Positions 13,300 through 64,000 of a stretch of DNA of 64,000 bases are shown here, piece after piece. The notes beneath the pieces were generated by a model. The model made no database searches. It saw nothing but the letters and a program-made list of their open reading frames with translations, and was not told the origin of the DNA. Numbering within the stretch: the stretch's first letter is position 1; every line of letters starts with the position of its first letter. The position numbers and the translations under genes are program-made. The stretch spans positions 10,774-74,773 of the IMG/VR virus record IMGVR_UViG_3300018080_000167. One strand, written 5' to 3'. The DNA is from a virus.

Positions 13300-13336
13300 C
13301 TATATATAATATCTACTAAATAGAAAATTTTTCCAA
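13300..13336 (-). promoter_or_regulatory. Class B phage promoter
   Basis: TTGGAA-N13-AGTAGATATTATATATAG; one of six copies. Confidence 0.7.
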
Positions 13337-15308: not shown

Positions 15309-15384
15309 TGGTACGCCAAGAAGGATTCGAACCTTCGACAATCAGATTAGAAATCTGATACTCTATCCTCTGAGCTACTGGCGT
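15309..15384 (-). tRNA. tRNA-Arg (anticodon UCU)
   Basis: ACGCCAG acceptor, TAGCTCAG D-arm, TCAGA-TTTCTAA-TCTGA anticodon arm, GGTTCGAATCC, encoded CCA. Confidence 0.93.
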
Positions 15385-15396
15385 AAAAATGATTAT

Positions 15397-15474
15397 TGGT
15401 GGGGCCGAACGGATTTGAACCGCTAACCTATCGTTTATAAGACGATTGCGCTTACCAGATTGTGCCACGACCCC
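15397..15474 (-). tRNA. tRNA-Ile (anticodon UAU)
   Basis: GGGGTCG/CGGCCCC acceptor, ATCGT-CTTATAA-ACGAT anticodon arm, GGTTCAAATCC, ACCA end. Confidence 0.9.
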
Positions 15475-16411: not shown

Positions 16412-16653
16412 TATACACTTCTCCTAACAAGTTTCAAAATTTTGGCTTTCAACTTTAGAGTCTTGTCCTTTGTAACAATGTCGCTTGTGTGAAAAAGATT
16501 ATTTTGCAACATTGCAAGTTTAAGCTGCGCAATGCTTACGGCAGCGTCCATCTTTGTTGTTGATATCATCATTTCTCCTTCATATTCTTTAATAAATGTT
16601 TTTACTTTTTGTAATTCAATTTCAGCTTGTTTAGCCAATTGTTTAAATGTCAT
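16411..16653 (-). CDS. Hypothetical protein
   Basis: Coupled ORF. Confidence 0.55.
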   Translation of the reverse strand: MTFKQLAKQAEIELQKVKTFIKEYEGEMMISTTKMDAAVSIAQLKLAMLQNNLFHTSDIVTKDKTLKLKAKILKLVRRSV

Positions 16654-17176
16654 TTTTTATTTGCCTACGTATGTTTCCTTTTGCCCTCTGTACTTTTAAA
16701 TATGCTGTAGATTTACTTTTGTTTATTTTTTTAGCAATTTCTCCATATTTGTATCCCAATAGTCTGAACAACATTGTATTATCGCTGTCATGTTTTGCAA
16801 GAAGCTCTCTAACATATATTTCTTCAGCTATATTGTCGTGCTGTGAAGGCATTGGAACATTAGCCGAATGTAATGTTTTGCTACAATCTGGTATTTCATC
16901 CTTGTATTTCTTCCAGTATTGATAATTCGGAAACTTTAAATAATGCCCCTGGGTGCATAACATTTGTTTAATTGAACCAATTGCCCTTTTCATCATTGTT
17001 ACTATTATTTGTTTGTCTTCAAGTTCAATATTTTTCTTTCTCAAACTTTCATATGTTTCTATGGCTGCGAGGCGCTGCTCTTGCAAACAATCTTGATCAT
17101 TGAAGCGCTCACATTCATATAGGTTTGTATGGAAAAATCTATCAAGCTGTTCTAAATAGTGTTCAATTGGTTTCAT
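16643..17176 (-). CDS. Sigma-factor-like protein (region-4 HTH)
   Basis: DCLQEQRLAAIE (region 2-like); GYKYGEIAKKINKSKSTAYLKVQRAK; AGGAGG RBS before MKPIEH. Confidence 0.6.
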   Translation of the reverse strand: MKPIEHYLEQLDRFFHTNLYECERFNDQDCLQEQRLAAIETYESLRKKNIELEDKQIIVTMMKRAIGSIKQMLCTQGHYLKFPNYQYWKKYKDEIPDCSKTLHSANVPMPSQHDNIAEEIYVRELLAKHDSDNTMLFRLLGYKYGEIAKKINKSKSTAYLKVQRAKGNIRRQIKNDI

Positions 17177-17296
17177 GCTCGCCTCCTTAGCCACTCCTTG
17201 AATTTCGGGTTTACATCGTCTTGTGAGTTGAGCCATTCCAAAACTTCTTTAGCCTTCAATTCACCACTCTTTACTTTTTGCCGCAATGATCCAGCT

Positions 17297-19175: not shown

Positions 19176-19847
19176 TTAATAGTTTTCGGCCTCTTCTCTT
19201 GTCATAAAAAAATGAATACCGTGTGTACAAGTTTTCCGTATATCCGTATCGAAGTGATCCGCATAGACCGTTTCACCCTCTTTGTACACTACACCCGTAT
19301 CATATAATCCGCACCCATTGCCCTCGATTACCTTCACGTATTCAGCCCTACATTTTCTTGAAGTGGGCACTGATATGCGGGCCGCCTCGGCCGGAATACG
19401 AATCTTTATGACACCCCCCCTTACGGCCTTGTATGCGATAAAACTGCCCTCCTCCGGGCATACCGCGTACGGTGAAAATTTGCAGCCATCAATATTCGCG
19501 CCCCACAAATCCGCGCGCCGCAAATCCGCGTCCCGCAAATTCGCGCCCTGTAAATCCGCGCGCCGCAAATCCGCGTCCCGCAAATTCGCGCCCTGTAAAT
19601 CCGCGCGCCGCAAATCCGCGCCCCACAAAGCCGCATCCCGCAAGTCCGCGCCCCACAAAGCCGCATCCCGCAAGTCCGCGCCCCGCAAATCCGCGTCCCG
19701 CAAATTCACACCCCACAAATCCGCGTTCCGCAAATCCACGTACCGCAAATCCGCGTCCCGCAAATCCGCGCGCCGCAAATCCGCGCCCTGCAAATTCGCA
19801 CCCTGCAAGTCCGCGCCCCTTTTAATTTCATAGCCTTTTACGTTCAT
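19176..19847 (-). CDS. Pentapeptide-repeat protein with C-terminal DUF5758-like domain
   Basis: ~22 A(D/N)Lxx repeats, then CPEEGSFIAYK..KCRAEYVKV..CTHGIHFFMTREEAENY. Confidence 0.9.
   Translation of the reverse strand: MNVKGYEIKRGADLQGANLQGADLRRADLRDADLRYVDLRNADLWGVNLRDADLRGADLRDAALWGADLRDAALWGADLRRADLQGANLRDADLRRADLQGANLRDADLRRADLWGANIDGCKFSPYAVCPEEGSFIAYKAVRGGVIKIRIPAEAARISVPTSRKCRAEYVKVIEGNGCGLYDTGVVYKEGETVYADHFDTDIRKTCTHGIHFFMTREEAENY
19490..19818 (-). repeat. 15-bp degenerate tandem repeat encoding the pentapeptides
   Basis: Recurring cgcaaatccgcg units; 45-bp and 30-bp exact duplications. Confidence 0.85.
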
Positions 19848-22033: not shown

Positions 22034-22547
22034 AATTTCCTCCTAAATGGTATTTTAATAAGAAAAAAAGCACTTTTTGTTTTTTAATAATACTACAAAT
22101 AAAAAGAAGAATAAGAGAGAAAGGAGTAGAAAGGGGAAGGGAGTTAGGAAAAGGTTGGTGGGTTGGGTGTTTCCTATTGTGAGATGCGCCAAAAAAATGA
22201 TAATTCTCTAACGATTTTTCCGTTTTGCTTCCGCCATTAACGTTGCCGCCCCTGCTATTACTCTTAGTAATTGCTGTTTTTAGCCAAAAAATTAACTTTT
22301 TTTTAAAAGGAGCCATTATTATTTTTATTCTCCCGACTTTTAATAATATTATTATAACGAATATTATCTAACGTATTATTGCCAAAAAAATCCTTTTTTA
22401 CATTAATAACTTCACTAATAATAGCATTTTTACTGCTTTTTTTATGTCGCCATTATTATCTAAGGTATTACGGGTGTGCCCTTATTATACAAATCGATAC
22501 AAATCGTTGTTTTTGAGCCAAAAATGGCACTTTCATTTAACACTTCT

Positions 22548-22698
22548 AACCGTCATATGACACTTTCCAACCGTCATATGACACTTTCTGAACCGTCGTG
22601 TGACATTTTCCAACCGTCATATGACACTTTCTGAACCGTCGTGTGACACTTTCCAACCGTCATATGACACTTTCTGAACCGTCGTATGACGACTTCTC
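22548..22698. repeat. Iteron-like tandem array, 7 units of 21/22 bp (43-bp higher-order period)
   Basis: AACCGTCRTRTGACACTTTC(C/TG) at 22548, 22569, 22591, 22612, 22634, 22655, 22677. Confidence 0.9.
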
Positions 22699-22703
22699 AA
22701 TTA

Positions 22704-23015
22704 TTATGTGAACGGAATAACATCGTCATCACAACCATTTATACAAGTATCAATATCATCGATTTTTTCTTTTAATATTTTATATTGTTTTTCTACATCG
22801 TCTAATCTGATATTAGCCGCATTCAGCGCTTGCAATACCTCTTCTTGGAATTTATTAAAATCATTGGCTTTAATATAATTGCCAGTATGAGTTACATTAT
22901 TAACAGTATTATTTTTTCTATAATAATATTTTCTATGATTATCACAACAAAATTTTTGTTGTTTTCCAAACAAAGGTTTTCCGCAATATTCACATTTTTT
23001 AGTATATTCTACCAT
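22704..23015 (-). CDS. Zinc-finger plus coiled-coil protein
   Basis: CEYCGK...KFCCDNHRK. Confidence 0.6.
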   Translation of the reverse strand: MVEYTKKCEYCGKPLFGKQQKFCCDNHRKYYYRKNNTVNNVTHTGNYIKANDFNKFQEEVLQALNAANIRLDDVEKQYKILKEKIDDIDTCINGCDDDVIPFT

Positions 23016-23590: not shown

Positions 23591-23851
23591 CTACTTTTTT
23601 GCAGCCCTAAAAAAGTCATATAATGATTCGTGTTTATCTTTATAAAAATTTTCACCATCATCAAAGAGTGGCTCAGAAGCCTCACAGCCGTCAATTAGCT
23701 CATTTTCTTTTATCGTCTCTTCCAGTACAACATCAAACCTTTTAAGCCAATAACGCGCCTCTCCTACCGTTACACCCAAACTTTTAGCCATCTCTCGGAC
23801 ATTAGAACTTGCTTCCGCCAATTCTTTAATAGTTTTTTTGTTGATATCCAT
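23591..23851 (-). CDS. HTH DNA-binding protein
   Basis: NVREMAKSLGVTVGEARYWLKRF; AGGAG RBS after class B promoter. Confidence 0.6.
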   Translation of the reverse strand: MDINKKTIKELAEASSNVREMAKSLGVTVGEARYWLKRFDVVLEETIKENELIDGCEASEPLFDDGENFYKDKHESLYDFFRAAKK

Positions 23852-23866
23852 AATAATACTCCTTTC

Positions 23867-23903
23867 TACATATAATATCTACTATATTGTAATTTTTTCC
23901 TAA
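23867..23903 (-). promoter_or_regulatory. Class B phage promoter
   Basis: TAGGAA..AGTAGATATTATATGTAG. Confidence 0.7.
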
Positions 23904-24099
23904 TGAATTTGAAATAATTTTATTTTCTCTATTGACAGAGGGGTTCCCTTTTCTCCCTTCCCATAATTTAAGTTTATGGCGGCGGCTACCCCTTCAGGGT
24001 AAGGAGGGGGGAGCTATGCCTAACCATTATTTTTAGCAAAAAAAGCCTAAATAAAAAAGGCGCTCGCCGATTATGAAAAAAGAGACATTTTTTGGAAAA

Positions 24100-24460
24100 C
24101 CTATTGCTCATCGCTTCTGTAGAGCGTCGAAAGCACGGTGGCATATTATATTTTCCTACATGTTCGGGTGCTGGTTGCAAAGGGAACCAGGGAAGCAGAG
24201 CCAGCGCGCACCGTGAGAGGCTCACTAAAATCGATGGTCTCCCGCCACTCGTGGCGATATATGCCTCCCGCTGTTTCCAGCTACTAAGCAATATATTCTT
24301 TTCCATCGACACCTCTCTTTTTCCCTAAAGCTATTAACTTAAGGTACTTACTAATTAGGTAGCTTTCAAACCTTTGGTTTTTTTATTAAAGAGAGTAACC
24401 TGTCTGAAATCTCTCTAATTTAACAGCAAAGCGATTCGCTGTAAAGAGAACCTTTCTCTA
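24100..24460 (-). ncRNA. Candidate large structured non-coding RNA
   Basis: Nested helices, a GCTG-GAAA-CAGC tetraloop on the minus strand, elevated GC, directly downstream of a class B promoter. Confidence 0.5.
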
Positions 24461-24496
24461 TTATATAATATCTACTAAAATGCCTCTTTTATTCAA
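24461..24496 (-). promoter_or_regulatory. Class B phage promoter
   Basis: TTGAAT-N14-AGTAGATATTATATAA. Confidence 0.7.
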
Positions 24497-24796
24497 TATT
24501 TTTTAAAATTTATTTTTTTTAATGAAAATATTATAGAATTTATTATAAAATGTATTACTGCAAATATTAAAGGGGGGAGGGTTAAAGTGTAATTATAAAA
24601 GAAGTTATTAAGGATTGCCAATTTGGCAATTTCATCTCCAGTCGCTCTCGCTCTCTGAACACAAAAAGGTAATTATTATAAAAGTTATTAAAGTAAGTAT
24701 TACTGTATAACAAAAAATAAAGAAGGCGACGATTATGCCGCCCTCAATATTTTCTTGATCTTAAAAAACTATTATTATTTTGGATCAATAGAATTA

Positions 24797-25018
24797 TTAT
24801 TCTTGCTGCACCCCGTTAAAACCATTATAAATATGAACGCCCTCCTCTGTAGGTTCCCACTTCCTATAAACCTCATAGGATTGATTGCCATAGCGCACAC
24901 TAGTAAAGCGTGCTACAAGCCGCCATTCGGATGCATAATGGTAATGATCAGCTAACCAAAGCAGCATTTTTTTGTCTCTTGGCTCTGCATATTTTTCAAT
25001 TTCTTCTTTAATTTTCAT
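24797..25018 (-). CDS. Hypothetical protein
   Basis: AGGAGAG RBS. Confidence 0.6.
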   Translation of the reverse strand: MKIKEEIEKYAEPRDKKMLLWLADHYHYASEWRLVARFTSVRYGNQSYEVYRKWEPTEEGVHIYNGFNGVQQE

Positions 25019-31869: not shown

Positions 31870-31911
31870 TCTCATTCACAGCACATCGGATTGAAAAAAT
31901 AGAGATTAAAA
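31870..31911 (-). promoter_or_regulatory. Class A phage promoter
   Basis: TTTTAATCTCTATTTTTTCAATCCGATGTGCTGTGAATGAG. Confidence 0.7.
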
Positions 31912-31929
31912 TCCCCTCTCTAAAAAGAT

Positions 31930-32232
31930 TTAATCTTCGTGTTTTTCTCTGTTTTTTTCATAACATCTTTTTGCGACCTCTTTAAAGATGTTGTTTCCAT
32001 TATCTTCCGCGCGATAATCTGTGATGTGCGTGATAAGACTATTTGTGCTTTCTTCGTCAAGACATTCGCTTTGAAGCCGACCGCGACCGGCTACCCTGAT
32101 TCTACGCTCTTTTGTGCCGCTTGCCTTGCGTGAATTGTAAATTGACCAACAAGTTGGACAATTGCCTCTCGGCTTCCTTAATCCTTTATAACGAGGATGG
32201 TTAGGACATGTTACTTGAAATAACGCTTTCAT
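31930..32232 (-). CDS. CxxHP-YKG zinc-motif protein
   Basis: CPNHPRYKGLRKPRGNCPTCW; AGGAGG RBS. Confidence 0.65.
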   Translation of the reverse strand: MKALFQVTCPNHPRYKGLRKPRGNCPTCWSIYNSRKASGTKERRIRVAGRGRLQSECLDEESTNSLITHITDYRAEDNGNNIFKEVAKRCYEKNREKHED

Positions 32233-32269
32233 AACGCCTCCTATTAAAAAATGTTTTATTGTTTGTAGC

Positions 32270-32313
32270 TCTCACATTGACTGCACATGGGATTGAAAAA
32301 ATCCGATGAAAAA
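32270..32313 (-). promoter_or_regulatory. Class A phage promoter
   Basis: TTTTCATCGGATTTTTTCAATCCCATGTGCAGTCAATGTGAG. Confidence 0.7.
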
Positions 32314-32435
32314 TCTAAAAAATTTTTTGTCTAAGATTTTGACAGGTAAATTTTACATAGGTAGAAATTACATAGGTAAAAAATCCATACTATAGAATTA
32401 TTACCTATGGTATTATTGCCTTGTTGTTGTTCACC

Positions 32436-32477
32436 TACCATTGAAAGCACATCGGATTGAAAAAATAAAGATTAAAA
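32436..32477 (-). promoter_or_regulatory. Class A phage promoter
   Basis: TTTTAATCTTTATTTTTTCAATCCGATGTGCTTTCAATGGTAG. Confidence 0.65.
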
Positions 32478-32735
32478 TAAAAAAATACAATAATAAAAAA
32501 TGATGTGCTTGTTATATATAATAGTATTATATAAAGATTAAAATAAAAAAATATAAGATATACGATTGTAAAAAATACTATGTAAAAAATGGAACATAGT
32601 AAAAAAACCATACCGAAAAATACATAGTATATTTTTTTATCCTTGTTTTTTGCGAAAAAAGAATGATTTTTTGTTTGGAACAGAACTTGCTATATATATA
32701 ATATGACAACAACAAATAAAAAAAATAAAAAAAGG

Positions 32736-32763
32736 TTGCGCAAATAAAAAAGCATCGTATACT
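32736..32763 (+). promoter_or_regulatory. Host sigma70-type promoter with A-tract UP element
   Basis: TTGCGC-16-TATACT. Confidence 0.6.
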
Positions 32764-32798
32764 TGAAATAGAGAGGAAAACAAAAAAAGGAGGTCGTT

Positions 32799-32930
32799 AT
32801 GGAAAAGGCATTGAAAGAGATCAGTATTGTAAAAAATAATGGGAAAGTAAGAGAAATAAATGGAAAAATGTATCCTGTTTGTGCATGGGACACTAAGTAT
32901 AGTAATCGTAAAAACTTAGAAAAAAAATAA
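32799..32930 (+). CDS. 43-aa basic peptide
   Basis: AAGGAGGT RBS after sigma70 promoter. Confidence 0.5.
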   Translation: MEKALKEISIVKNNGKVREINGKMYPVCAWDTKYSNRKNLEKK

Positions 32931-32937
32931 AAAATGG

Positions 32938-32965
32938 TTGCACAAACGGAAAAGGATGTTATAAT
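32938..32965 (+). promoter_or_regulatory. Host sigma70-type promoter with extended -10
   Basis: TTGCAC-16-TATAAT with TGn extension; A-tract upstream. Confidence 0.7.
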
Positions 32966-32998
32966 AGAATAGAGAGGAAAACAAATAAGGAGGTAATA

Positions 32999-33091
32999 AT
33001 GAATAGTGAAACAACAAAACGTATTGTTTATCTTGTCGTAAAAGGCATTGTATTGGGTCTTATTGTTAGTGCTATTATCGTTTTTGCATAG
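32999..33091 (+). CDS. 30-aa membrane peptide
   Basis: AAGGAGGT RBS; MNSETTKRIVYLVVKGIVLGLIVSAIIVFA. Confidence 0.5.
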   Translation: MNSETTKRIVYLVVKGIVLGLIVSAIIVFA

Positions 33092-33150
33092 TATTCAATT
33101 TATAGACCCGGTTTTTTGCCGGGTCTTTTTTTCTTTTTTCAGGAGGTCGT

Positions 33151-38914: not shown

Positions 38915-39269
38915 GCGAAATAAAAAATTGTTGTTTACTATCGGAAAAAAAGATTTTGATATTTCATATTTTTCAGGATCAGGCGCAGGAGGTCAGCATA
39001 GAAATAAACACAAAAATTGCGTAAGGCTTAAACACAAGGATTCTGGCGCTATTGCAACTGGGCAATCACATAAGAGTAAAAAGCAGAATCTTAAAGAGGC
39101 TCTTCATAATATTGTTAAAGTTGGGAAGTTTAAAATGTGGCACAGTCAAAAGGTGCGCGAGGCATTGGACGGAATAACGCTTGAAGAAAGGGTTAATAAA
39201 ATGATGGAGCCTAAAAATTTGAAGATTGAAGGCAGAAATAAAGAAGGCAAGTGGGAGGAAATTGAATGA
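38901..39269 (+). CDS. GGQ peptidyl-tRNA hydrolase / release-factor-like protein (ArfB/PrfH-like)
   Basis: SGSGAGGQHRNK..NCVRLKH..SG......SKKQN..EA. Confidence 0.85.
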   Translation: MATNKRNKKLLFTIGKKDFDISYFSGSGAGGQHRNKHKNCVRLKHKDSGAIATGQSHKSKKQNLKEALHNIVKVGKFKMWHSQKVREALDGITLEERVNKMMEPKNLKIEGRNKEGKWEEIE

Positions 39270-40414
39270 AATTTTATACAGAAGAAAATAAAGTTATCAA
39301 GTCTTGGTGTAACAATCCAGAAGATGGTACAATTGATCAGGCTCGTAATTTAGCGAATCTCCCATTTTTATTTAAGCACGTCGCTTTAATGCCCGACGGA
39401 CATCAGGGGTACGGGATGCCAATAGGTGGCGTAATTGCTTGCAACTCAGTAGTGATTCCTAATGCTGTTGGAGTTGATATTGGCTGCGGAATGGCAGTAG
39501 TGAAGACGACATTAACAGAAATCACCATCTCTGAATTAAAAACAATTATGTCTGGAATAAGAAAGAGGATTCCAGTTGGTTTTTCTCATCACAAAAGGAT
39601 GCAAGACTTTAGCTTGATGCCAGAACTTACAGATGAGAAGATAGTAAGTGAGCAATATCTATCAGCAAGTAGGCAACTGGGCACTTTGGGTGGCGGCAAT
39701 CATTTTATTGAGATACAAAAGGGGAGTGATGGACATATTTGGATTATGATACATTCGGGCTCTAGAAATTTGGGGTATAAAGTTGCGAAATATTATAATG
39801 AAATAGCCAAGGAAGCAAACAAAAAGTGGTACACACAGGTTGATCCAAAAAATGATTTGGCTTTTCTTCCTATAGATATGGATGACTGCCAAAATTATCT
39901 TAAGGAAATGGAATATTGCCTCAAGTTTGCTAAAGCTAATCGTGCATTGATGATAGAAAATATTAAGTGTGCGTTTGGAGAAGTTTTTGCAGAAATTTCT
40001 TTTGATAACTTTATTGATATTCATCACAATTATGTTGCGATAGAAAATCATTTTGGAAAAAACGTCTGGATACATAGAAAGGGTGCGACATCTGCTAAGG
40101 AAGGACAGACAGGAATCATTCCTGGCTCACAAGGCACTAGTTCATATATAGTAAGAGGAAAGGGCAATCCAGATTCTTTCAAGTCTTGTTCACATGGAGC
40201 AGGAAGGAAGATGGGGCGCAAAGAGGCACGAAAATCTTTAAATTTAGAAGATGAACAAAAAAAATTGGATGGTGTTATACATTCTGTCAGAAGCGAAAAA
40301 GATTTAGATGAAGCTTGTGGGGCGTATAAAAATATAAATATTGTAATGGAAGAACAGAAGGATTTAGTAGATATTGTTATAAGGATGGAGCCGTTGGCTG
40401 TTATAAAGGGATAA
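39266..40414 (+). CDS. rtcB: RNA ligase RtcB
   Basis: MPDGHQGYGMPIG, VGVDIGCG, LGTLGGGNHFIE, HSGSR, HRKGAT, SHGAGR, DEACGAYK. Confidence 0.95.
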   Translation: MKFYTEENKVIKSWCNNPEDGTIDQARNLANLPFLFKHVALMPDGHQGYGMPIGGVIACNSVVIPNAVGVDIGCGMAVVKTTLTEITISELKTIMSGIRKRIPVGFSHHKRMQDFSLMPELTDEKIVSEQYLSASRQLGTLGGGNHFIEIQKGSDGHIWIMIHSGSRNLGYKVAKYYNEIAKEANKKWYTQVDPKNDLAFLPIDMDDCQNYLKEMEYCLKFAKANRALMIENIKCAFGEVFAEISFDNFIDIHHNYVAIENHFGKNVWIHRKGATSAKEGQTGIIPGSQGTSSYIVRGKGNPDSFKSCSHGAGRKMGRKEARKSLNLEDEQKKLDGVIHSVRSEKDLDEACGAYKNINIVMEEQKDLVDIVIRMEPLAVIKG

Positions 40415-45368: not shown

Positions 45369-46175
45369 ATGGACATAGTGGCGAATGGAATTATTGGAAA
45401 ATGAAAACGTATTATTATTGATGATGAGGACTATGAAATAGTAAAAAATTTTAGATGGACATTAAAAAAAAGTTCGAATACGTTTTATGCTAAGTCATTT
45501 AATGGTGAGCACACAATACTTATGCATCGTCTTATATTGGGATTAAAATTTGGAGATAAGAGAGAAGTTGATCATATCAATAGAGATGGTATTGACAATA
45601 GGAAATGTAATTTAAGAATAGTTAATAGAAATCAACAAAATCAAAATAGACGTGCTGTTAGAAATAGATGTAGCAAATATAGAGGTGTTTGTTTTGCAAA
45701 ATGTGACTGTTGTAAATCTTTTAGGGCTGCGTTTAAAAAAGATGGTAAAACATTATGTGAAGTTATTTTTGCGACAGAAAAAATGGCTGCGTTATATTAT
45801 GATTTAATTGCATATAAACATAATTCAAAATATAATTATTTAAACTTTAAAGATATAAAATATTATGAAATTAAAAACATTATAAGCGATGAGATTAAAA
45901 AACAGGCGGAAAGAAGCGAGATCATAAGAAAAAACAAAGGTAAGGGTAATGAAAATAATATTGGGAAAAAGCTTGTAAGTTATACTAAATACACAGGTGT
46001 TGGATATCGTAAAGAAAGAAAAAAGCCCTGGTATGCATTTTGTTACATAGATGGCAAAAGGAAGAAACACATAGGGTCATATGCAACAGAGGCAGAGGCA
46101 GCTATGGCGTTTGATGAATATGTAATAAATAATAAAGTAGAGAAATATTTGCAACATTTGAATTGTGGGAGGTAA
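45369..46175 (+). CDS. HNH-AP2 homing endonuclease with in-frame TGA at codon 12 (intact ORF from 45522)
   Basis: IIDDEDY..W, MHRLIL, VDHINRDGIDNRKCNLR, two AP2-like repeats (SKYRGV, KYTGV..HIGSY.TE.EAA.AFD). Confidence 0.8.
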
Positions 46176-46176
46176 T

Positions 46177-48816
46177 GTGAAATTTACAGAAAACGGAATG
46201 AGGCTACTGAGGCGAAGGTATTTGAGAAAAGACAATAATGGAAATGTTGTTGAAACACCAGAAGAGCTTTTGGACAGGGTGAGCAAATGTCTTTCGCATT
46301 CAGAAATTTTTTATGGCGGTAAAACTAAAAGAAAAAAATGGTATAATATTATTAAAAATTCTTTGAACAATATGGAAATAATGCCATCAACCCCCATTCT
46401 TTTTAATGCTAGAGATCCTGAAATAGAAAAACCAGGGGTACTGTATGCTTGTTTTTTTGTTCCAATGTCTGATTCTATTCAGGGTATTTATTCGTGCCTA
46501 CACCTTTGTTCTTCTATTTTTAGCGCGGGTGGCGGCATAGGGACAGATGTGTCGTGTTTGCGTGAAAATGGGGCTGATATAGGTAATGGTAGGGGCGTTA
46601 GTACAGGACCAATATCATTTTTGAAAGTATTTGATGCTTCGTCTGATGCGATTTTACATGGGGGGGTCAGAAGGGCTGCCGCACTTGCATCGATGGATGT
46701 TTCACATCCAGACATAGAGCATTTTTTGCGTGTTAAAGGGGAAAACTTACAAGAAATTAATAGACTTTTGGCAATTGTTAATTCTTCTAAAGATGGCATA
46801 TTGAAAAAATATATTCAAGCTGAAATTTCTAAGTTGCAGCAACTTAGTCATTTTAATCTTTCTGTTAAGATCACAGATAAGTTTATGGATGCTGTAAGAA
46901 ATAATAAAGATTGGGAATTAATTTCTCCACATACGGGAAGCGTTGTTAAAACAATTTCTGCCGCGAAATTATTTAACGACATTTGTAGGTGTGCACATAA
47001 TTCTGCAGAACCTGGGGTTATTTTTATAGATGAAATTAATAGGCATAACCCAATGCCAAACATTGGACCAATTAATGGAACCAATGCTTGTTCTGAGGTT
47101 CCGCTTCATGATTATAATGCATGTAATTTGATATCTGTTAATTTAAATAAGTGCTTAGCTAACGAGGAGTTTTCTTTTGATGAACTGAAAAGAATCAGTA
47201 GGATAGCGCTTCGTTGCGGAGAAAATGTAATAGATGTTTCTTCATATCTTGATGAAAAGATAGAGAATATTGTTAAAAATAGTCGTGGGATTGGCGTTGG
47301 CGTTACTGGTTTTGCAGACGTTCTTGTAAGGCTTGGAATACCTTACGATAGCAAAAGAGCTAGAGATTTTGTTCGTAAAATAACAAAGGTATTAACAGAC
47401 TCATGTCGTGAAGAGTCAAAAGAGCTTGCAAAAGAAAGAGGTGTTTTTAATAATTATAAAGGATCTCTAATGGAAAAAAAGGGATTTGTTGTTAGAAATG
47501 CATTTGTCAGCGCTCTGCAGCCTACAGGATCTACTGCGATACTCGCTGGGGCATCTCAGTCAATAGAGCCATACTTTTCATTGTTTTACACTAGAAATAC
47601 TCACGAAGGCGATGTGTATGTTGAGCTTAATGAAATTTTTATTGATAAACTTAAAAAAATGAATATTGATACAGAATGTGTTGTTAATGAGCTAAAGAAA
47701 GGTAAGCAGCTTTGTGATATTGATATTATCCCAGATGAAATAAAAAGAGTTTTTGTTACATCTCATTTAATTTCAGCAGAGGGACATGTCAGAATGCAAG
47801 CTGCGGCTCAAGAAAATATAGATTTAAGCATTTCTAAAACTGTTAATTTACCATCTAATGCAACAGTAAACGATGTAAAAAATGTTTATCTGTTAGCAGA
47901 AAAACTCGGTTGTAAGGGGTGTACTGTATATAGGGATGGCTCAAGAGAGGGTGTTTTGCATTCTGTAGTCGAGAAAGAAGAGAGCGATGGTAATGAAGAG
48001 TTGCGAGACTTTTTGTATAATAAATTTGTCAAAGAGGGGCTTACGGCTAAAGAGATAGCCGACATTCTTGATGTTTCTGAATCACAAGTTTTTTCAAAGC
48101 TTAAAAGGTTTTGTATTAAGAAAAGTGATAAAAACACTACAATTTCTGCCAAAAAAATAAAACTTACTCAATCACTAAAGGAAATTATAATAGCGAATCT
48201 TCTTGTTGGTAATTCTAAAATAAACACTGTTGAGAGTCAGTCGTCTTATAGACAAGTAAGTGATCACTGTGTTTATACTAAGAATATTCGCAAAAAATTC
48301 TTGGACAACGGCATAAACTGTTCTGAGATTATGACAATTGTGACAGATAAAATATATTATTATTTTGACACTGTATTCAATAGTAATATTTATAATTTAC
48401 CAGCAGATAATGATGTGGTAGATAAGTTAAGCAGCGACGAGATTGATACGTTATTGACAAGAACTTTTGTTAGACACCTTTTTCTTGTTGGCGGAGTTCG
48501 TACAGGAAGAGGTGGAATTAAGTTTTGTTCTAAACACGGAAACTATAATAACTTAAAGAAAATTATGCAGCTTGTTGAGAAGGAGCTCGGTGTAGAATTC
48601 AGCTATAAGCAAAAGGAAAACAACAATGGAATTGTTTATATTCCTAAGAGGTGTGCGGAAGACTTTTATAATTTTATAGAGTCTGGAGAGCAAATCAATA
48701 AGATTAATTCAATACAAAGCAAGGCTACTTGTCCAGAATGTGGTGGTATGCTTAATTTTTGTGAAGGCTGTAAGACATGCGCCTCCTGCGGCTGGTCTGC
48801 TTGTAGTATTGGCTGA
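46177..48816 (+). CDS. nrdJ: Class II (adenosylcobalamin) ribonucleotide reductase with inserted HTH + degenerate LAGLIDADG domain
   Basis: RRYL, PSTPILFNA, YACF, GGGIG, GGVRRAA, EPG..FID, TNACSE, QPTGS, SISKTVN, KGCTVYRDGSR, C-terminal CPECG..CASCGWSAC; GGAGG RBS before GTG at 46177. Confidence 0.93.
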   Translation: MKFTENGMRLLRRRYLRKDNNGNVVETPEELLDRVSKCLSHSEIFYGGKTKRKKWYNIIKNSLNNMEIMPSTPILFNARDPEIEKPGVLYACFFVPMSDSIQGIYSCLHLCSSIFSAGGGIGTDVSCLRENGADIGNGRGVSTGPISFLKVFDASSDAILHGGVRRAAALASMDVSHPDIEHFLRVKGENLQEINRLLAIVNSSKDGILKKYIQAEISKLQQLSHFNLSVKITDKFMDAVRNNKDWELISPHTGSVVKTISAAKLFNDICRCAHNSAEPGVIFIDEINRHNPMPNIGPINGTNACSEVPLHDYNACNLISVNLNKCLANEEFSFDELKRISRIALRCGENVIDVSSYLDEKIENIVKNSRGIGVGVTGFADVLVRLGIPYDSKRARDFVRKITKVLTDSCREESKELAKERGVFNNYKGSLMEKKGFVVRNAFVSALQPTGSTAILAGASQSIEPYFSLFYTRNTHEGDVYVELNEIFIDKLKKMNIDTECVVNELKKGKQLCDIDIIPDEIKRVFVTSHLISAEGHVRMQAAAQENIDLSISKTVNLPSNATVNDVKNVYLLAEKLGCKGCTVYRDGSREGVLHSVVEKEESDGNEELRDFLYNKFVKEGLTAKEIADILDVSESQVFSKLKRFCIKKSDKNTTISAKKIKLTQSLKEIIIANLLVGNSKINTVESQSSYRQVSDHCVYTKNIRKKFLDNGINCSEIMTIVTDKIYYYFDTVFNSNIYNLPADNDVVDKLSSDEIDTLLTRTFVRHLFLVGGVRTGRGGIKFCSKHGNYNNLKKIMQLVEKELGVEFSYKQKENNNGIVYIPKRCAEDFYNFIESGEQINKINSIQSKATCPECGGMLNFCEGCKTCASCGWSACSIG

Positions 48817-58103: not shown

Positions 58104-59111
58104 ATGAAAATTTTGAATAAAAAAGCATTCCAGATGGATGACGAACACAAAGAACTCCTTCGCCAGACTGCTTCGAACGATCCTGAGGTACAGGCGAAGT
58201 ATCGACAAGCACTTGCTCAAACATTGGATGGTGCTTTTAAGTCTGCAGTTCTTGAGGAAGACACTCTTGAAGGTATTTTTGATAGGGTTATGGTTCCAGT
58301 TGGTGGAGACACAAGGTTTCCTATTCATTTTCTTGAACCAGGAGACGAAGAAGATCATGTAGCTTTTGTTATGCCTAAAGAGGGCGCGATGCCTTTGCGC
58401 ATGATCGAAGGCGATGAGATTTATGTTTCGACGTATGTTCTCGGTAATACTATTAATTGGCCTATCCGTTATGCTCGCGATGCGCGCTGGGATGTTGTTG
58501 CCGATGCAATGGATGTTTTTTACTATGGTTTTACACGCAAAATGAATGACGACGGATGGAAGACAATTATTACTTCTGCTGTAGAAAATGGTGCTGTTAC
58601 TGATAGCGATGCGGCAGATGGAACTCTTACGAAAAAGCTTTTCACTAATCTTCAGATTGGTATAAAGCGACTCACTGGTGGACGTAGGAGTAAGGTAACA
58701 GATGTTTATCTTTCTCCAGAGGCACTCGCTGACATTCGTAATTGGGGACCAACAGTAGTTGATGAAGCCACTCGTCGTCAAATTTTCCAGGGCGAACAAT
58801 CTCTTCCTGCTATTTTTGGTGTAAATCTTCATGAACATCTTGAACTTGGTGAAGGCCAGCGACTCCAGACATACATTGAGTCTTCAGATGGTCCTGATAA
58901 GAGCTCTTGGTTTACGAGCGACAAAGAATTTTGTATTGCTCTTGACTTAAGTTCAAAGCCCAACTATCCTTTCAAGATGCCTATCCGCGAAGAGCTTGGT
59001 GTATTTGATGACCAAACGATGCATAAGACAGCGCGCATGGGGGTGTATGGTTGGATGGAGCTTGGATTTGCAGTTCTTGATCAAAGATACGGTATGATAG
59101 GTACATTTTAA
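58104..59111 (+). CDS. Major capsid protein
   Basis: 335 aa; IRYARDARWDVV, YLSPEALADIRNW, GVYGWMELGFAVLD; followed by strong terminator. Confidence 0.85.
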   Translation: MKILNKKAFQMDDEHKELLRQTASNDPEVQAKYRQALAQTLDGAFKSAVLEEDTLEGIFDRVMVPVGGDTRFPIHFLEPGDEEDHVAFVMPKEGAMPLRMIEGDEIYVSTYVLGNTINWPIRYARDARWDVVADAMDVFYYGFTRKMNDDGWKTIITSAVENGAVTDSDAADGTLTKKLFTNLQIGIKRLTGGRRSKVTDVYLSPEALADIRNWGPTVVDEATRRQIFQGEQSLPAIFGVNLHEHLELGEGQRLQTYIESSDGPDKSSWFTSDKEFCIALDLSSKPNYPFKMPIREELGVFDDQTMHKTARMGVYGWMELGFAVLDQRYGMIGTF

Positions 59112-59155
59112 GATTCATAAGCTGTTATTAATACAGCATTTATAAGTTAATTTTT

Positions 59156-59190
59156 TGAGAGGGGTTTTAAAACCCCTCTCATTTTTTTTT
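59156..59190 (+). terminator. Rho-independent terminator
   Basis: TGAGAGGGGTTTT/AAAACCCCTCTCA followed by T-run. Confidence 0.85.
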
Positions 59191-59288
59191 CTCTCTGTTT
59201 ATGATTCGAAAAGTGGTAGGAGTTAGGTTAATGAATATAAAATGTAGCAATAAAAAACTGCCAACATAGTTAGGAAAAGAAAATTTTG

Positions 59289-61507: not shown

Positions 61508-61542
61508 TAGTATTAAATAATAGGCATTTTTAAGGCTTTATT

Positions 61543-61570
61543 ATGGGGCAGATAATTCTGCCCCATTTTT
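61543..61570 (+). terminator. Rho-independent terminator
   Basis: ATGGGGCAG..CTGCCCCAT followed by T-run. Confidence 0.8.
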
Positions 61571-61577
61571 ATACAAT

Positions 61578-61596
61578 AAGTCGTATAATTATATAG
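61578..61596 (+). promoter_or_regulatory. Class C (late) phage promoter
   Basis: AGTCGTATAATTATA. Confidence 0.6.
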
Positions 61597-61685
61597 AAAG
61601 AGTGCTGTTTATTTTATAATATGTTCAAATTATGTTGTATTATTAAACATTTTGTATATTAATTATTTTATTTTAGGAGGTTGTA

Positions 61686-62586: not shown

Positions 62587-64000
62587 ATGGCAAATTTTAT
62601 ATCTAAATGGAAAGTTATTCCTGGCGATTTGTCTATTTCTTTACCTCTTGTAAATGGTGGAACATATAATTTTGTTGTTAATTATGGAGACGCAAGTGGT
62701 GACTATACTGTTACATCATATAATGATGTTGACGCTACACATGAATATGCTGCTTCTGGTGAGTATACTGTTACAGTAAGCGGAACTATTGAAGGCTGGT
62801 CCTTTAATGATGGTGGAGATAAAGATAAGATAGTTGAAATAAGTCAATGGGGTGATCTTAGTTTTGGATCTACAGATGGTCAATTTTATGGCTGTGGCAA
62901 CTTAGATATAACAGCAACTGATGCCCCTGATTTGTCTAATACAACTAGTTTACGTTATTGTTTTCGTGATTGCTCTTCGCTTACTTCTTTAGATGTAAGC
63001 AGTTGGGACACATCAAGTGTAACAACTTTAAGTCGTTGTTTTAATGGTTGTTCTTCACTTACTTCTTTAGATGTAAGTGCTTGGGACGTATCAAGTGTAA
63101 CAATTTTATATTCTTGTTTTCATGGTTGTTCTTCGCTTACTTCTTTAGATGTAAGCGGTTGGGATACGTCAAGTGCAACAAATTTAAGAAATTGTTTTTA
63201 TGATTGTTCTTCACTTACTTCTTTAGATGTAAGCAGTTGGGATACATCAGGTGTAGAAAGTTTACAAGAATGTTTTTATAATTGTTCTTCGCTTACTTCT
63301 TTAGATGTAAGTTCTTGGGATGTATCAAGTGTAACAACCCCATATGCTTGTTTTCGTGATTGCTCTTCACTTACTTCTTTAGATGTAAGCAGTTGGGACA
63401 CATCAAGTTTAACAAGTTTACGTTATTGTTTTGAAGATTGTTCTTCACTCTCAGGATTAGAAATTCATAATTGGGATGTATCTAGTGTAACAACAGCAAC
63501 AAACTTTCTTAATGGAGCAAATAGCGCCCTTACAACATATGAATACGATCAAATATTAATTAATTGGTCAGAGCAATCTTTAAATAATAATGTTTCAATC
63601 CACTTCGGAGATGCACAATATGATTTAGGAGAACCTGAAAGTGCACATAATGTTTTAACAGATACATACGAGTGGACGATAGTAGACGGTGGAGATACAG
63701 GAAGTTATTTTTATGTTGTTGATGCGGAAATTGTCGCAGATAGTCCATTTATAGAATCTATATTAAATAGAGGTACAGATAGACATATAGATGCTGAAAT
63801 TACAGTAGACAATCCATTTATAGAGTCTGTACTTAGAAGAAGTGTGTCCAGACATATAGATGCTGAAATTACAGTAGACAATCCATTTATGGAATCCACA
63901 TTGAGTAGAAGTAAACATCTCGATGCTGAAATTACAGTAGACAATCCATTTATGGAATCCACATTGAGTAGAAGTAAACATCTCGATGCTGAAATTACAG
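62587..64000 (+). CDS. Partial PKD + BspA/DUF285 leucine-rich-repeat protein (open to the window end; absent from ORF track)
   Basis: GAGGA RBS; NFVVNYGD..THEYAASGEYTV, EISQWG..FYGC.NL...DAPDLS, 26-aa LRRs, YDQILINWS, then 21-23 aa repeats. Confidence 0.85.
   Translation, partial: MANFISKWKVIPGDLSISLPLVNGGTYNFVVNYGDASGDYTVTSYNDVDATHEYAASGEYTVTVSGTIEGWSFNDGGDKDKIVEISQWGDLSFGSTDGQFYGCGNLDITATDAPDLSNTTSLRYCFRDCSSLTSLDVSSWDTSSVTTLSRCFNGCSSLTSLDVSAWDVSSVTILYSCFHGCSSLTSLDVSGWDTSSATNLRNCFYDCSSLTSLDVSSWDTSGVESLQECFYNCSSLTSLDVSSWDVSSVTTPYACFRDCSSLTSLDVSSWDTSSLTSLRYCFEDCSSLSGLEIHNWDVSSVTTATNFLNGANSALTTYEYDQILINWSEQSLNNNVSIHFGDAQYDLGEPESAHNVLTDTYEWTIVDGGDTGSYFYVVDAEIVADSPFIESILNRGTDRHIDAEITVDNPFIESVLRRSVSRHIDAEITVDNPFMESTLSRSKHLDAEITVDNPFMESTLSRSKHLDAEIT
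62941..63490 (+). repeat. 78-bp LRR-coding tandem repeat, about 7 units
   Basis: Recurring tcttc(a/g)cttacttctttagatgtaag..tggga..catcaagt. Confidence 0.85.
63721..64000 (+). repeat. 63/69-bp tandem repeat (DAEITVDNPF.ES.L.R...H.)
   Basis: gatgctgaaattacagtagacaatccattt recurring; last two units essentially identical. Confidence 0.85.

Follow-up and report, generated by a model that had tools for sequence, protein, structure and literature searches.

A plausible orphan non-coding transcript with a predicted three-way junction in an uncultured large phage

Genomic setting and base composition

The window analyzed here is a stretch of 64 kb and forms part of a 74.8-kb IMG/VR virus record with an estimated completeness of 41%. 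The phage is uncultured and large, with a contig GC content of 34% and a likely origin in a sediment metagenome. The window carries the genes for a terminase, a portal protein, a ribonucleotide reductase, RtcB, and a sigma factor, together with two tRNAs. The stretch under study (24100-24460) is placed in the early/middle leftward region of the phage, inside a 945-bp gap without credible genes (23852-24796). On the downstream side, the gap borders on the gene 23591-23851, named for a helix-turn-helix (HTH) domain that is a weak Pfam match, and on the upstream side, it borders on the cassette of a 73-aa gene (24797-25018). According to a crude gene call by codon scores, the gap is the second-longest in the window. 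The longest gap of this call, 1,271 nt at 31880-33150 with a GC150 of up to 0.49, holds a short ORF on the minus strand (31930-32232), for which a weak match exists in G001, one of two related phages considered below.

The stretch had been described as richer in GC than its surroundings, which is borne out by the base composition. The segment 24092-24291 shows a GC content of 0.52, the second-highest of any 200-nt window in the 64 kb. The GC150 of the gap reaches 0.56, the top value among true intergenic regions, compared to 0.447 for the tRNA region and a mean intergenic GC of 0.31. A second small GC-rich patch follows at 23940-24002 and contains a tract of 19 nt (23944-23962) that reads as all purine in the minus-strand transcript and as all pyrimidine on the plus strand. 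A repeat search detects a perfect 10-nt complement between 23942-23951 and 24179-24188, which lies near chance expectation. The same search reveals no flanking direct or inverted repeats above chance, which leads to the rejection of a mobile element with terminal repeats. A micro-ORF of 6 codons (MPNHYF) on the plus strand, at 24001-24035, features a strong Shine-Dalgarno (SD) sequence, AAGGAGG, 7 nt before its ATG; it runs against the local gene direction and is probably coincidental.

The only 200-nt window with a higher GC content belongs to a pentapeptide-repeat gene at 19.5 kb. This gene (19176-19847, minus strand) encodes about 20 repeats of the A(D/N)LxG type, followed by a C-terminal domain of ∼100 aa. 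At the DNA level, the repeats correspond to 21.5 copies of a 15-nt unit with a GC content of 0.68, the maximum of the window, and the mRNA is the strongest folding outlier (z of -7.8). PHROGs of unknown function are matched by the protein. DNA mimicry is known from pentapeptide-repeat proteins, and by analogy, the product could be an early protein of the anti-restriction or anti-gyrase type.

Long, GC-enriched intergenic regions are the structured-RNA candidates of the GC-IGR pipeline, which accepts motifs only with covariation across several representatives (Brewer et al. 2021, PMC8632094). The present gap shows the length and G+C content selected in that approach (945 nt and a GC150 of 0.56 versus an intergenic mean of 0.31). 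Like the GC-IGR candidates, it is a long gene-free gap of high GC content, folds better than its shuffles, and belongs to no known family. Unlike the accepted GC-IGR motifs, it is a single sequence for which no relatives were found.

Promoters, transcription start, and terminators

The preliminary description placed a phage promoter directly upstream of the stretch, pointing into it, and this promoter belongs to a genuine repeated motif. The motif TAGTAGATATTATA occurs 10 times in the window with up to two mismatches, compared to 1.35 expected occurrences, and none of 100 shuffles reaches 10. Six good copies share the arrangement aTTGaA-N13/14-TAGTAGATATTATA-TrTAG, with the TTGAA-type box at a fixed distance. 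Five of these six are located 15 to 60 nt before the start of a gene on the same strand. The sixth, found by the motif search at 24496-24464 on the minus strand (TTGAAT at 24496-24491, a spacer of 13 nt, and TAGTAGATATTATA at 24477-24464), faces ∼590 gene-free nt up to the next copy. That next copy (23884-23871, minus strand) lies 20 nt before the HTH gene.

Judging from the motif spacing, transcription would start near 24458. With this start, the RNA would open with the hairpin 24445-24459, and a 5' hairpin is likewise found at the promoter copy at 13305. The stretch is very probably transcribed on the minus strand without being translated; its transcription and the position of the 3' end of the RNA are both inferred.

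Two sigma-70-like sites, recognized by consensus matches alone, read leftward toward the RNA on the minus strand of the AT-rich segment 24542-24621. These are TTGGCA-18-TATAAT at 24621-24592, with 11 of 12 consensus matches, and TTAATA-17-TATAAT at 24570-24542, with 10 of 12. TATTA-type boxes with a 12-bp phase are present upstream of the RNA promoter as two clusters 133 bp apart (24511-24714, DNA of 24% GC) and could serve a phage regulator as operators.

The gene at 16643-17236 (minus strand) encodes a phage sigma factor according to a weak match to PHROG 1740 (E of 3.6e-7), and this factor is a plausible reader of the TAGTAGATATTATA motif. Promoters of the SPO1 type are read by phage sigma factors, and their late -10 element is GATATT. 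The present motif resembles them in containing GATATT 18 nt after the TTGAA box, in a phage that encodes a sigma factor of its own (by the weak PHROG match). The related phages G001 and G002 do not carry the motif. A search with TAGTAGATATTATA for other phages with the same promoter system gave single chance matches among the matches listed, and no relatives of the sigma factor were found in viral contigs.

A strong intrinsic terminator at 24722-24745 (minus strand), with a 9-bp stem containing six GC pairs and a T-run, closes the upstream cassette of the 73-aa gene (-15.5 kcal/mol, z of -5.13). Downstream of the stretch, a weak hairpin at 24044-24068 on the minus strand resembles a terminator and has U6 and U7 runs (-7.9 kcal/mol, z of -0.43). 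This hairpin is not listed by the terminator scan. The stretch is followed by no convincing terminator, unlike the neighboring cassettes.

Coding potential

The only long ORF in the stretch is a frame of 108 codons with a GTG start on the minus strand (23986-24312), and it is judged spurious. An internal ATG at 24306 is preceded by GAGAGG at a distance of 5 nt, so that the frame comprises 106 or 108 codons depending on the start. Codon usage was compared to that of 23 training genes and 11 small neighboring genes. The log-odds of the frame amount to -0.30 per codon. Antisense ORFs span -0.59 to +0.05 and thus include this value, which is far below the +0.11 to +0.37 of the 34 genes. The GC content at the three codon positions is flat (0.46/0.46/0.49), compared to ∼0.45/0.32/0.27 in real genes of this phage.

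The frame shows no Pfam match and no phmmer match in 1.84 billion representative proteins. It also finds nothing in 5.8 billion clustered proteins, itself included, in contrast to the neighboring HTH gene, which finds itself. The ESM recognition value of 1108 falls below the 2300 level, and the AF2 model is poor, with a pLDDT of 54.8 and a pTM of 0.28. The claim that the stretch is non-coding is upheld by these results, and a protein-coding gene is rejected on the basis of codon usage, periodicity, and the lack of a homologue or domain match. The stretch is accordingly taken as non-coding.

A translated orphan protein from this frame is rated as very improbable, even though some features favor it. 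By a rough estimate, chance would produce a 108-codon frame in ∼400 nt in only ∼5% of cases, the SD-like GAGAGG is properly spaced, and the real HTH neighbor is also without homologues, so that the orphan state is not decisive. Besides the codon statistics and the negative searches, the location of the SD sequence and start codon argues against translation, as both lie within helix P1 of the junction described below.

Predicted fold

All helices listed in the preliminary description can be read from the sequence at their listed positions. In plus-strand coordinates, these are GAGAGG (24215-20) with CCTCTC (24312-17), TCGATGG (24231-37) with CCATCGA (24303-09), CGCCAC (24243-48) with GTGGCG (24251-56), ATATATGC (24257-64) with GCAATATAT (24288-96), CACGGTG (24134-40) with CACCGTG (24209-15), CTGGTT (24171-76) with AACCAG (24185-90), and AAAGCTA with TAGCTTT (24327-66). 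The proposed GNRA tetraloop is likewise present, as GCTG-TTTC-CAGC at 24270-81 on the plus strand corresponds to a GAAA loop on the minus strand. The three additional hairpins beyond the nested helices are found at 24388-24459.

Fold prediction for the minus strand arranges the center of the stretch as a three-way junction (24210-24325). P1 is formed by GAGAGGUGUCGAUGG with CCAUCGA...CCUCUC, P2 is capped by GCUG-GAAA-CAGC (24270-24281), and P3 consists of CGCCAC/GUGGCG (24243-24256). The junction of 116 nt folds with -40.8 kcal/mol on the minus strand, with a z score of -4.55, none of 200 shuffles as good, and a frequency of the minimum free energy structure of 0.17. On the plus strand, the same segment reaches -29.7 kcal/mol (z of -3.93). 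This difference of 11 kcal/mol arises because several G-U pairs and the GAAA loop exist only on the minus strand. The better-folding strand agrees with the promoter direction, in line with the minus-strand fold proposed earlier.

The remainder of the transcript is less conspicuous. The 423-nt transcript 24040-24462 (minus strand) reaches -124.8 kcal/mol with a z score of -2.93 and 1 of 100 shuffles as good, compared to a z score of -1.28 on the plus strand. The 5' block (24325-24459, minus strand) is composed of AU-rich hairpins at 24445-24459, 24423-24442, 24388-24419, 24367-24380, and 24327-24366, the first of which begins at about +1. The segment 24421-24444 shows a z score of -3.36, and the block as a whole shows one of -1.26. 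In the GC-rich 3' part (24100-24209, minus strand), suggested as a second domain, CUGGUU/AACCAG alone is predicted with any confidence. Folding better than shuffles is sustained for the junction and the whole transcript and not for the 201-nt core (z of -1.40), the 5' block, or the 3' part (z of -1.11). Sliding windows over 24040-24200 show residual z scores of 0 to +1, as the composition predicts.

Ensembles were computed with the partition function for three assumed transcript lengths. The pair probability is 0.96 for the GAAA hairpin, 0.77 for CGCCAC/GUGGCG, 0.73 to 0.85 for AAAGCUA/UAGCUUU, and 0.34 to 0.71 for CUGGUU/AACCAG (24171-24190). It amounts to 0 to 0.09 for CACGGUG/CACCGUG and to 0 to 0.5 for the outer junction helices (P1 and the base of P2), depending on the assumed transcript end. 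Long-range alternatives, such as the pairing of 24287-24304 with 24094-24110, compete with these outer helices. The idea of a large multi-junction RNA is thus reduced to a single three-way junction of ∼110 nt with a few local hairpins, and the CACGGTG/CACCGTG helix and a firm outer closure do not survive. According to the models, this one branched module of ∼110 nt is the sole strongly supported part of the fold and is well supported, and the junction would form in vivo.

As a control for multiple testing, the whole window was folded in 120-nt and 420-nt windows. The junction window ranks 51st among 6,390 windows of 120 nt, and about 25 distinct loci, mostly terminators, are as good as the junction or better, with z scores of -3.5 or below. 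The 420-nt window of the stretch ranks 18th among 908. The strongest composition-corrected outliers at 420 and 120 nt are located in or between structural genes, at 62960-63379 (minus strand), 61541-61660, and 59081-59220; the two short ones are probably bidirectional terminators. Another strong RNA-fold outlier, at 46860-47279 on the minus strand, lies within the ribonucleotide reductase large-subunit ORF (46165-48816, plus strand). This ORF shows weak matches to HNH-endonuclease PHROGs at residues ∼606 to 668, and this may be an inserted element of the homing-endonuclease or intein type.

Known RNA families and relatives

The stretch is an orphan and lies outside every described RNA family. 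A scan with the 4,227 models of Rfam 15 detects no family at the gathering threshold in the stretch, and the hits in the window are the two tRNAs at 15.3 kb. The models include tRNA, tmRNA, RNase P, SRP, and 6S RNAs, group I and II introns, riboswitches, and self-cleaving ribozymes, as well as the phi29 pRNA and GOLLD, ROOL, OLE, raiA, and HEARO. At an E value of up to 10, the best hit in 23850-24650 reaches 19.7 bits against a threshold of 45 (E of 0.25) and is located outside the core. ARAGORN finds no tRNA or tmRNA in the stretch and reports only a tRNA-Arg and a tRNA-Ile, at 15309-15474. Both results agree with the initial impression, gained by eye, that the RNA is not a tRNA, tmRNA, SRP, or RNase P RNA.

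Homologue searches are negative throughout. No homologue is detected by blastn of the stretch against phages and plasmids. Exact-pattern scans of viral contigs give two matches, both due to chance and in GC-rich phages, and none for the other patterns. Twelve degenerate peptide-type probes for 24019-24328 find nothing in metagenome contigs, species genomes, or viral contigs. A single-sequence covariance model of the junction reveals no relative in the window, the rest of the contig, G001, or G002. Among the sequencing runs listed, none is of RNA, one DNA run may be that of the source sample, and a salt-lake run shares 17% of words.

G001 and G002, uncultured phages of 150.9 kb and 95.9 kb with ∼54% terminase identity, are the nearest retrievable relatives. 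Both have the structural and replication genes in common with the present phage, in contrast to the early region at 14.6 to 36 kb, and the gap shows neither DNA nor tblastx similarity to them. Their GC contents are 47% and 41%. The HTH protein finds only itself in a protein search, and an identical protein is encoded by a 144-kb sibling contig. The orphan status of the stretch says little about function because the HTH gene next to it, a real gene, is also an orphan.

The RNA shows some likeness to described phage RNAs. In PhiKZ, Grad-seq detected two intergenic ncRNA candidates as transcripts, one of them of ∼100 nt (PMC8545117). Like these, the stretch is intergenic, belongs to a large phage of the lytic type, contains no ORF, and has no known function. 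Unlike these, it is predicted only, exceeds them in length, and possesses a promoter copy of its own, and there is no sequence relation. GOLLD and ROOL, and also OLE and raiA, are RNAs of large size and ornate architecture that are often found in phages or prophages, with structures determined by cryo-EM (PMC12286853). The stretch resembles them in being phage-borne, ORF-free, GC-richer, and several hundred nt long in a genome with tRNA genes. It differs in being far less helix-dense, in the distance of 9 kb to the tRNAs, in the lack of conservation, and in the absence of a meaningful Rfam score at an E value of up to 10.

Tests of possible functions

Motif counts argue against a sponge of the CsrA/RsmA or ribosome type. 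GGA occurs 6 times compared to 6.3 expected, with 2 of the 6 predicted to be unpaired, and neither SD-like nor C-rich motifs are enriched in the stretch. A leader that masks the ribosome-binding site of the HTH gene is rejected, as in the long transcript the SD sequence of this gene remains largely free of pairing. A riboswitch or attenuator is rejected on the basis of the weakness of the terminator-like site (-7.9 kcal/mol, z of -0.43), the unmasked SD sequence, and the second promoter that intervenes. The best complementarity to the rest of the 64-kb window extends over 12 to 14 nt and is AT-rich, with chance-level E values; a regulator antisense to the phage's own messages is rejected for lack of extended complementarity within this window.

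Interpretation and alternative explanations

It is plausible that the stretch yields an orphan non-coding transcript of the phage, which would be either a leader or an RNA in its own right. The reading preferred here, held tentatively and with somewhat less than even confidence, is that of an RNA cassette in which the three-way junction is the functional part and which, through read-through, serves also as a leader of the HTH operon. The phage promoter at 24496-24464 and the two host-type look-alikes upstream of it would drive leftward transcription from about 24458. The transcript would run through 420 to 590 nt that encode no protein. The RNA would open with several small hairpins in succession, one of them directly at the 5' end, followed by the compact GC-rich three-way junction of ∼110 nt with its GAAA tetraloop.

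On this reading, considered the most likely one, the junction would be a functional RNA module specific to the lineage. Its effect would come from the fold, which would offer a phage or host protein a binding site or decoy, instead of from base pairing. Since the stretch is not followed by a real terminator, some of the transcription probably runs on into the HTH operon, and the same RNA would then also form a long leader of the HTH operon message. Several results count against a functional RNA: no homologue was found that could show covariation or selection, half of the GC-rich patch (24100-24210) is unexplained by predicted helices, the outer junction helices compete with long-range alternatives, no convincing terminator follows, the plus strand also folds significantly, and the fold lies only in the upper tail of the window, at the ranks given above. 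A bolder version regards the stretch as the founding member of a new class of structured phage RNAs, with its own sigma-specific promoter in an early region of host takeover or anti-defense, acting as a protein decoy against a host defense or RNA-binding factor or as an RNase-H-resistant replication primer. This version appears improbable.

The rival that survives best is a transcribed spacer or relic, left by a lost cassette gene or by a fragment recently acquired from a GC-richer source, which would now be a passive leader of the HTH operon with an incidental fold. It is unlikely on balance, although several observations are consistent with it. Between the stretch and the next promoter and gene there is no terminator, all homologue searches leave the sequence an orphan, 24100-24210 is GC-rich without predicted structure, and the fold ranks in the top 1 to 2% and no higher. 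The related phages are GC-richer (47% and 41%), so that GC-rich donors exist in the lineage. However, no DNA or translated similarity connects the stretch to G001, G002, or any collection searched, no codon periodicity remains, and a GC patch not under selection would be expected to decay under AT mutation pressure. What further favors the RNA cassette over a relic is the junction itself, with its z score of -4.55, the GNRA loop, and minus-strand G-U pairs that agree with the promoter direction.

A replication primer is quite improbable. Here, a persistent RNA-DNA hybrid near the polypurine tract (23944-23962) would prime leftward synthesis beside AT-rich repeats, in the manner of ColE1 RNA II or the promoter-type origins of T4 and T7. 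The locus resembles these systems in combining a promoter, a folded non-coding RNA of several hundred nt, no terminator after the stretch, and AT-rich repeats, in the form of phased-repeat DNA of 24% GC just upstream. The 19-nt purine tract in the transcript could stabilize an RNA-DNA hybrid. A tandem array of 21/43-bp repeats follows downstream (22533-22695), and the cumulative GC skew has its minimum near 25.9 kb, coinciding with the switch in gene direction. As the skew switch coincides with the switch in transcription direction, it does not count as independent evidence. The RNA and the array are separated by the HTH operon, and the complement of the purine tract with the loop at 24179-24188 is at chance level. 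Unlike ColE1 RNA II, the locus shows neither an RNase H site nor an antisense RNA I counterpart.

Less probable again than the primer is the orphan protein treated above under coding potential. The most improbable reading of all is that the element works at the level of the DNA, for example by binding a protein or by extruding a structure within a regulatory or origin region, with an irrelevant RNA fold. In its favor are the significant plus-strand fold (z of -3.93), expected of any Watson-Crick symmetric structure, and the adjoining repeat-rich AT DNA. Against it, a branched three-way junction is not a typical motif of duplex DNA, and the minus-strand G-U pairs, the GAAA loop, and the promoter orientation all favor RNA.

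If the RNA cassette is real, it would add another large lytic phage that devotes a promoter to an RNA instead of a protein, with the RNA product in a region of host-takeover and counter-defense genes. RNA-based counter-defense and RNA-primed origins are poorly charted in uncultured phages. The value of the locus is that of a concrete candidate with precise coordinates, a deduced start, and a defined junction. It is represented by one sequence of a sediment metagenome and does not amount to a discovery.

Other features of the window

The tandem array at 22533-22695 is composed of 7.6 copies of a 21-nt unit with a 43-nt superunit and 91% matches. It is located just downstream of a Zn-ribbon gene (22704-23015), is a folding outlier on both strands, and looks like an iteron or centromere array.

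The RNA ligase RtcB is encoded at 39266-40414 on the plus strand (PHROG 1075, E of 1e-124), and its look-alikes are uninformative on the host. The two tRNAs on the minus strand at 15309-15474 are tRNA-Arg(TCT) and tRNA-Ile(TAT). Together with RtcB, they look like a kit for tRNA repair and supply, typical of phages facing anticodon nucleases.
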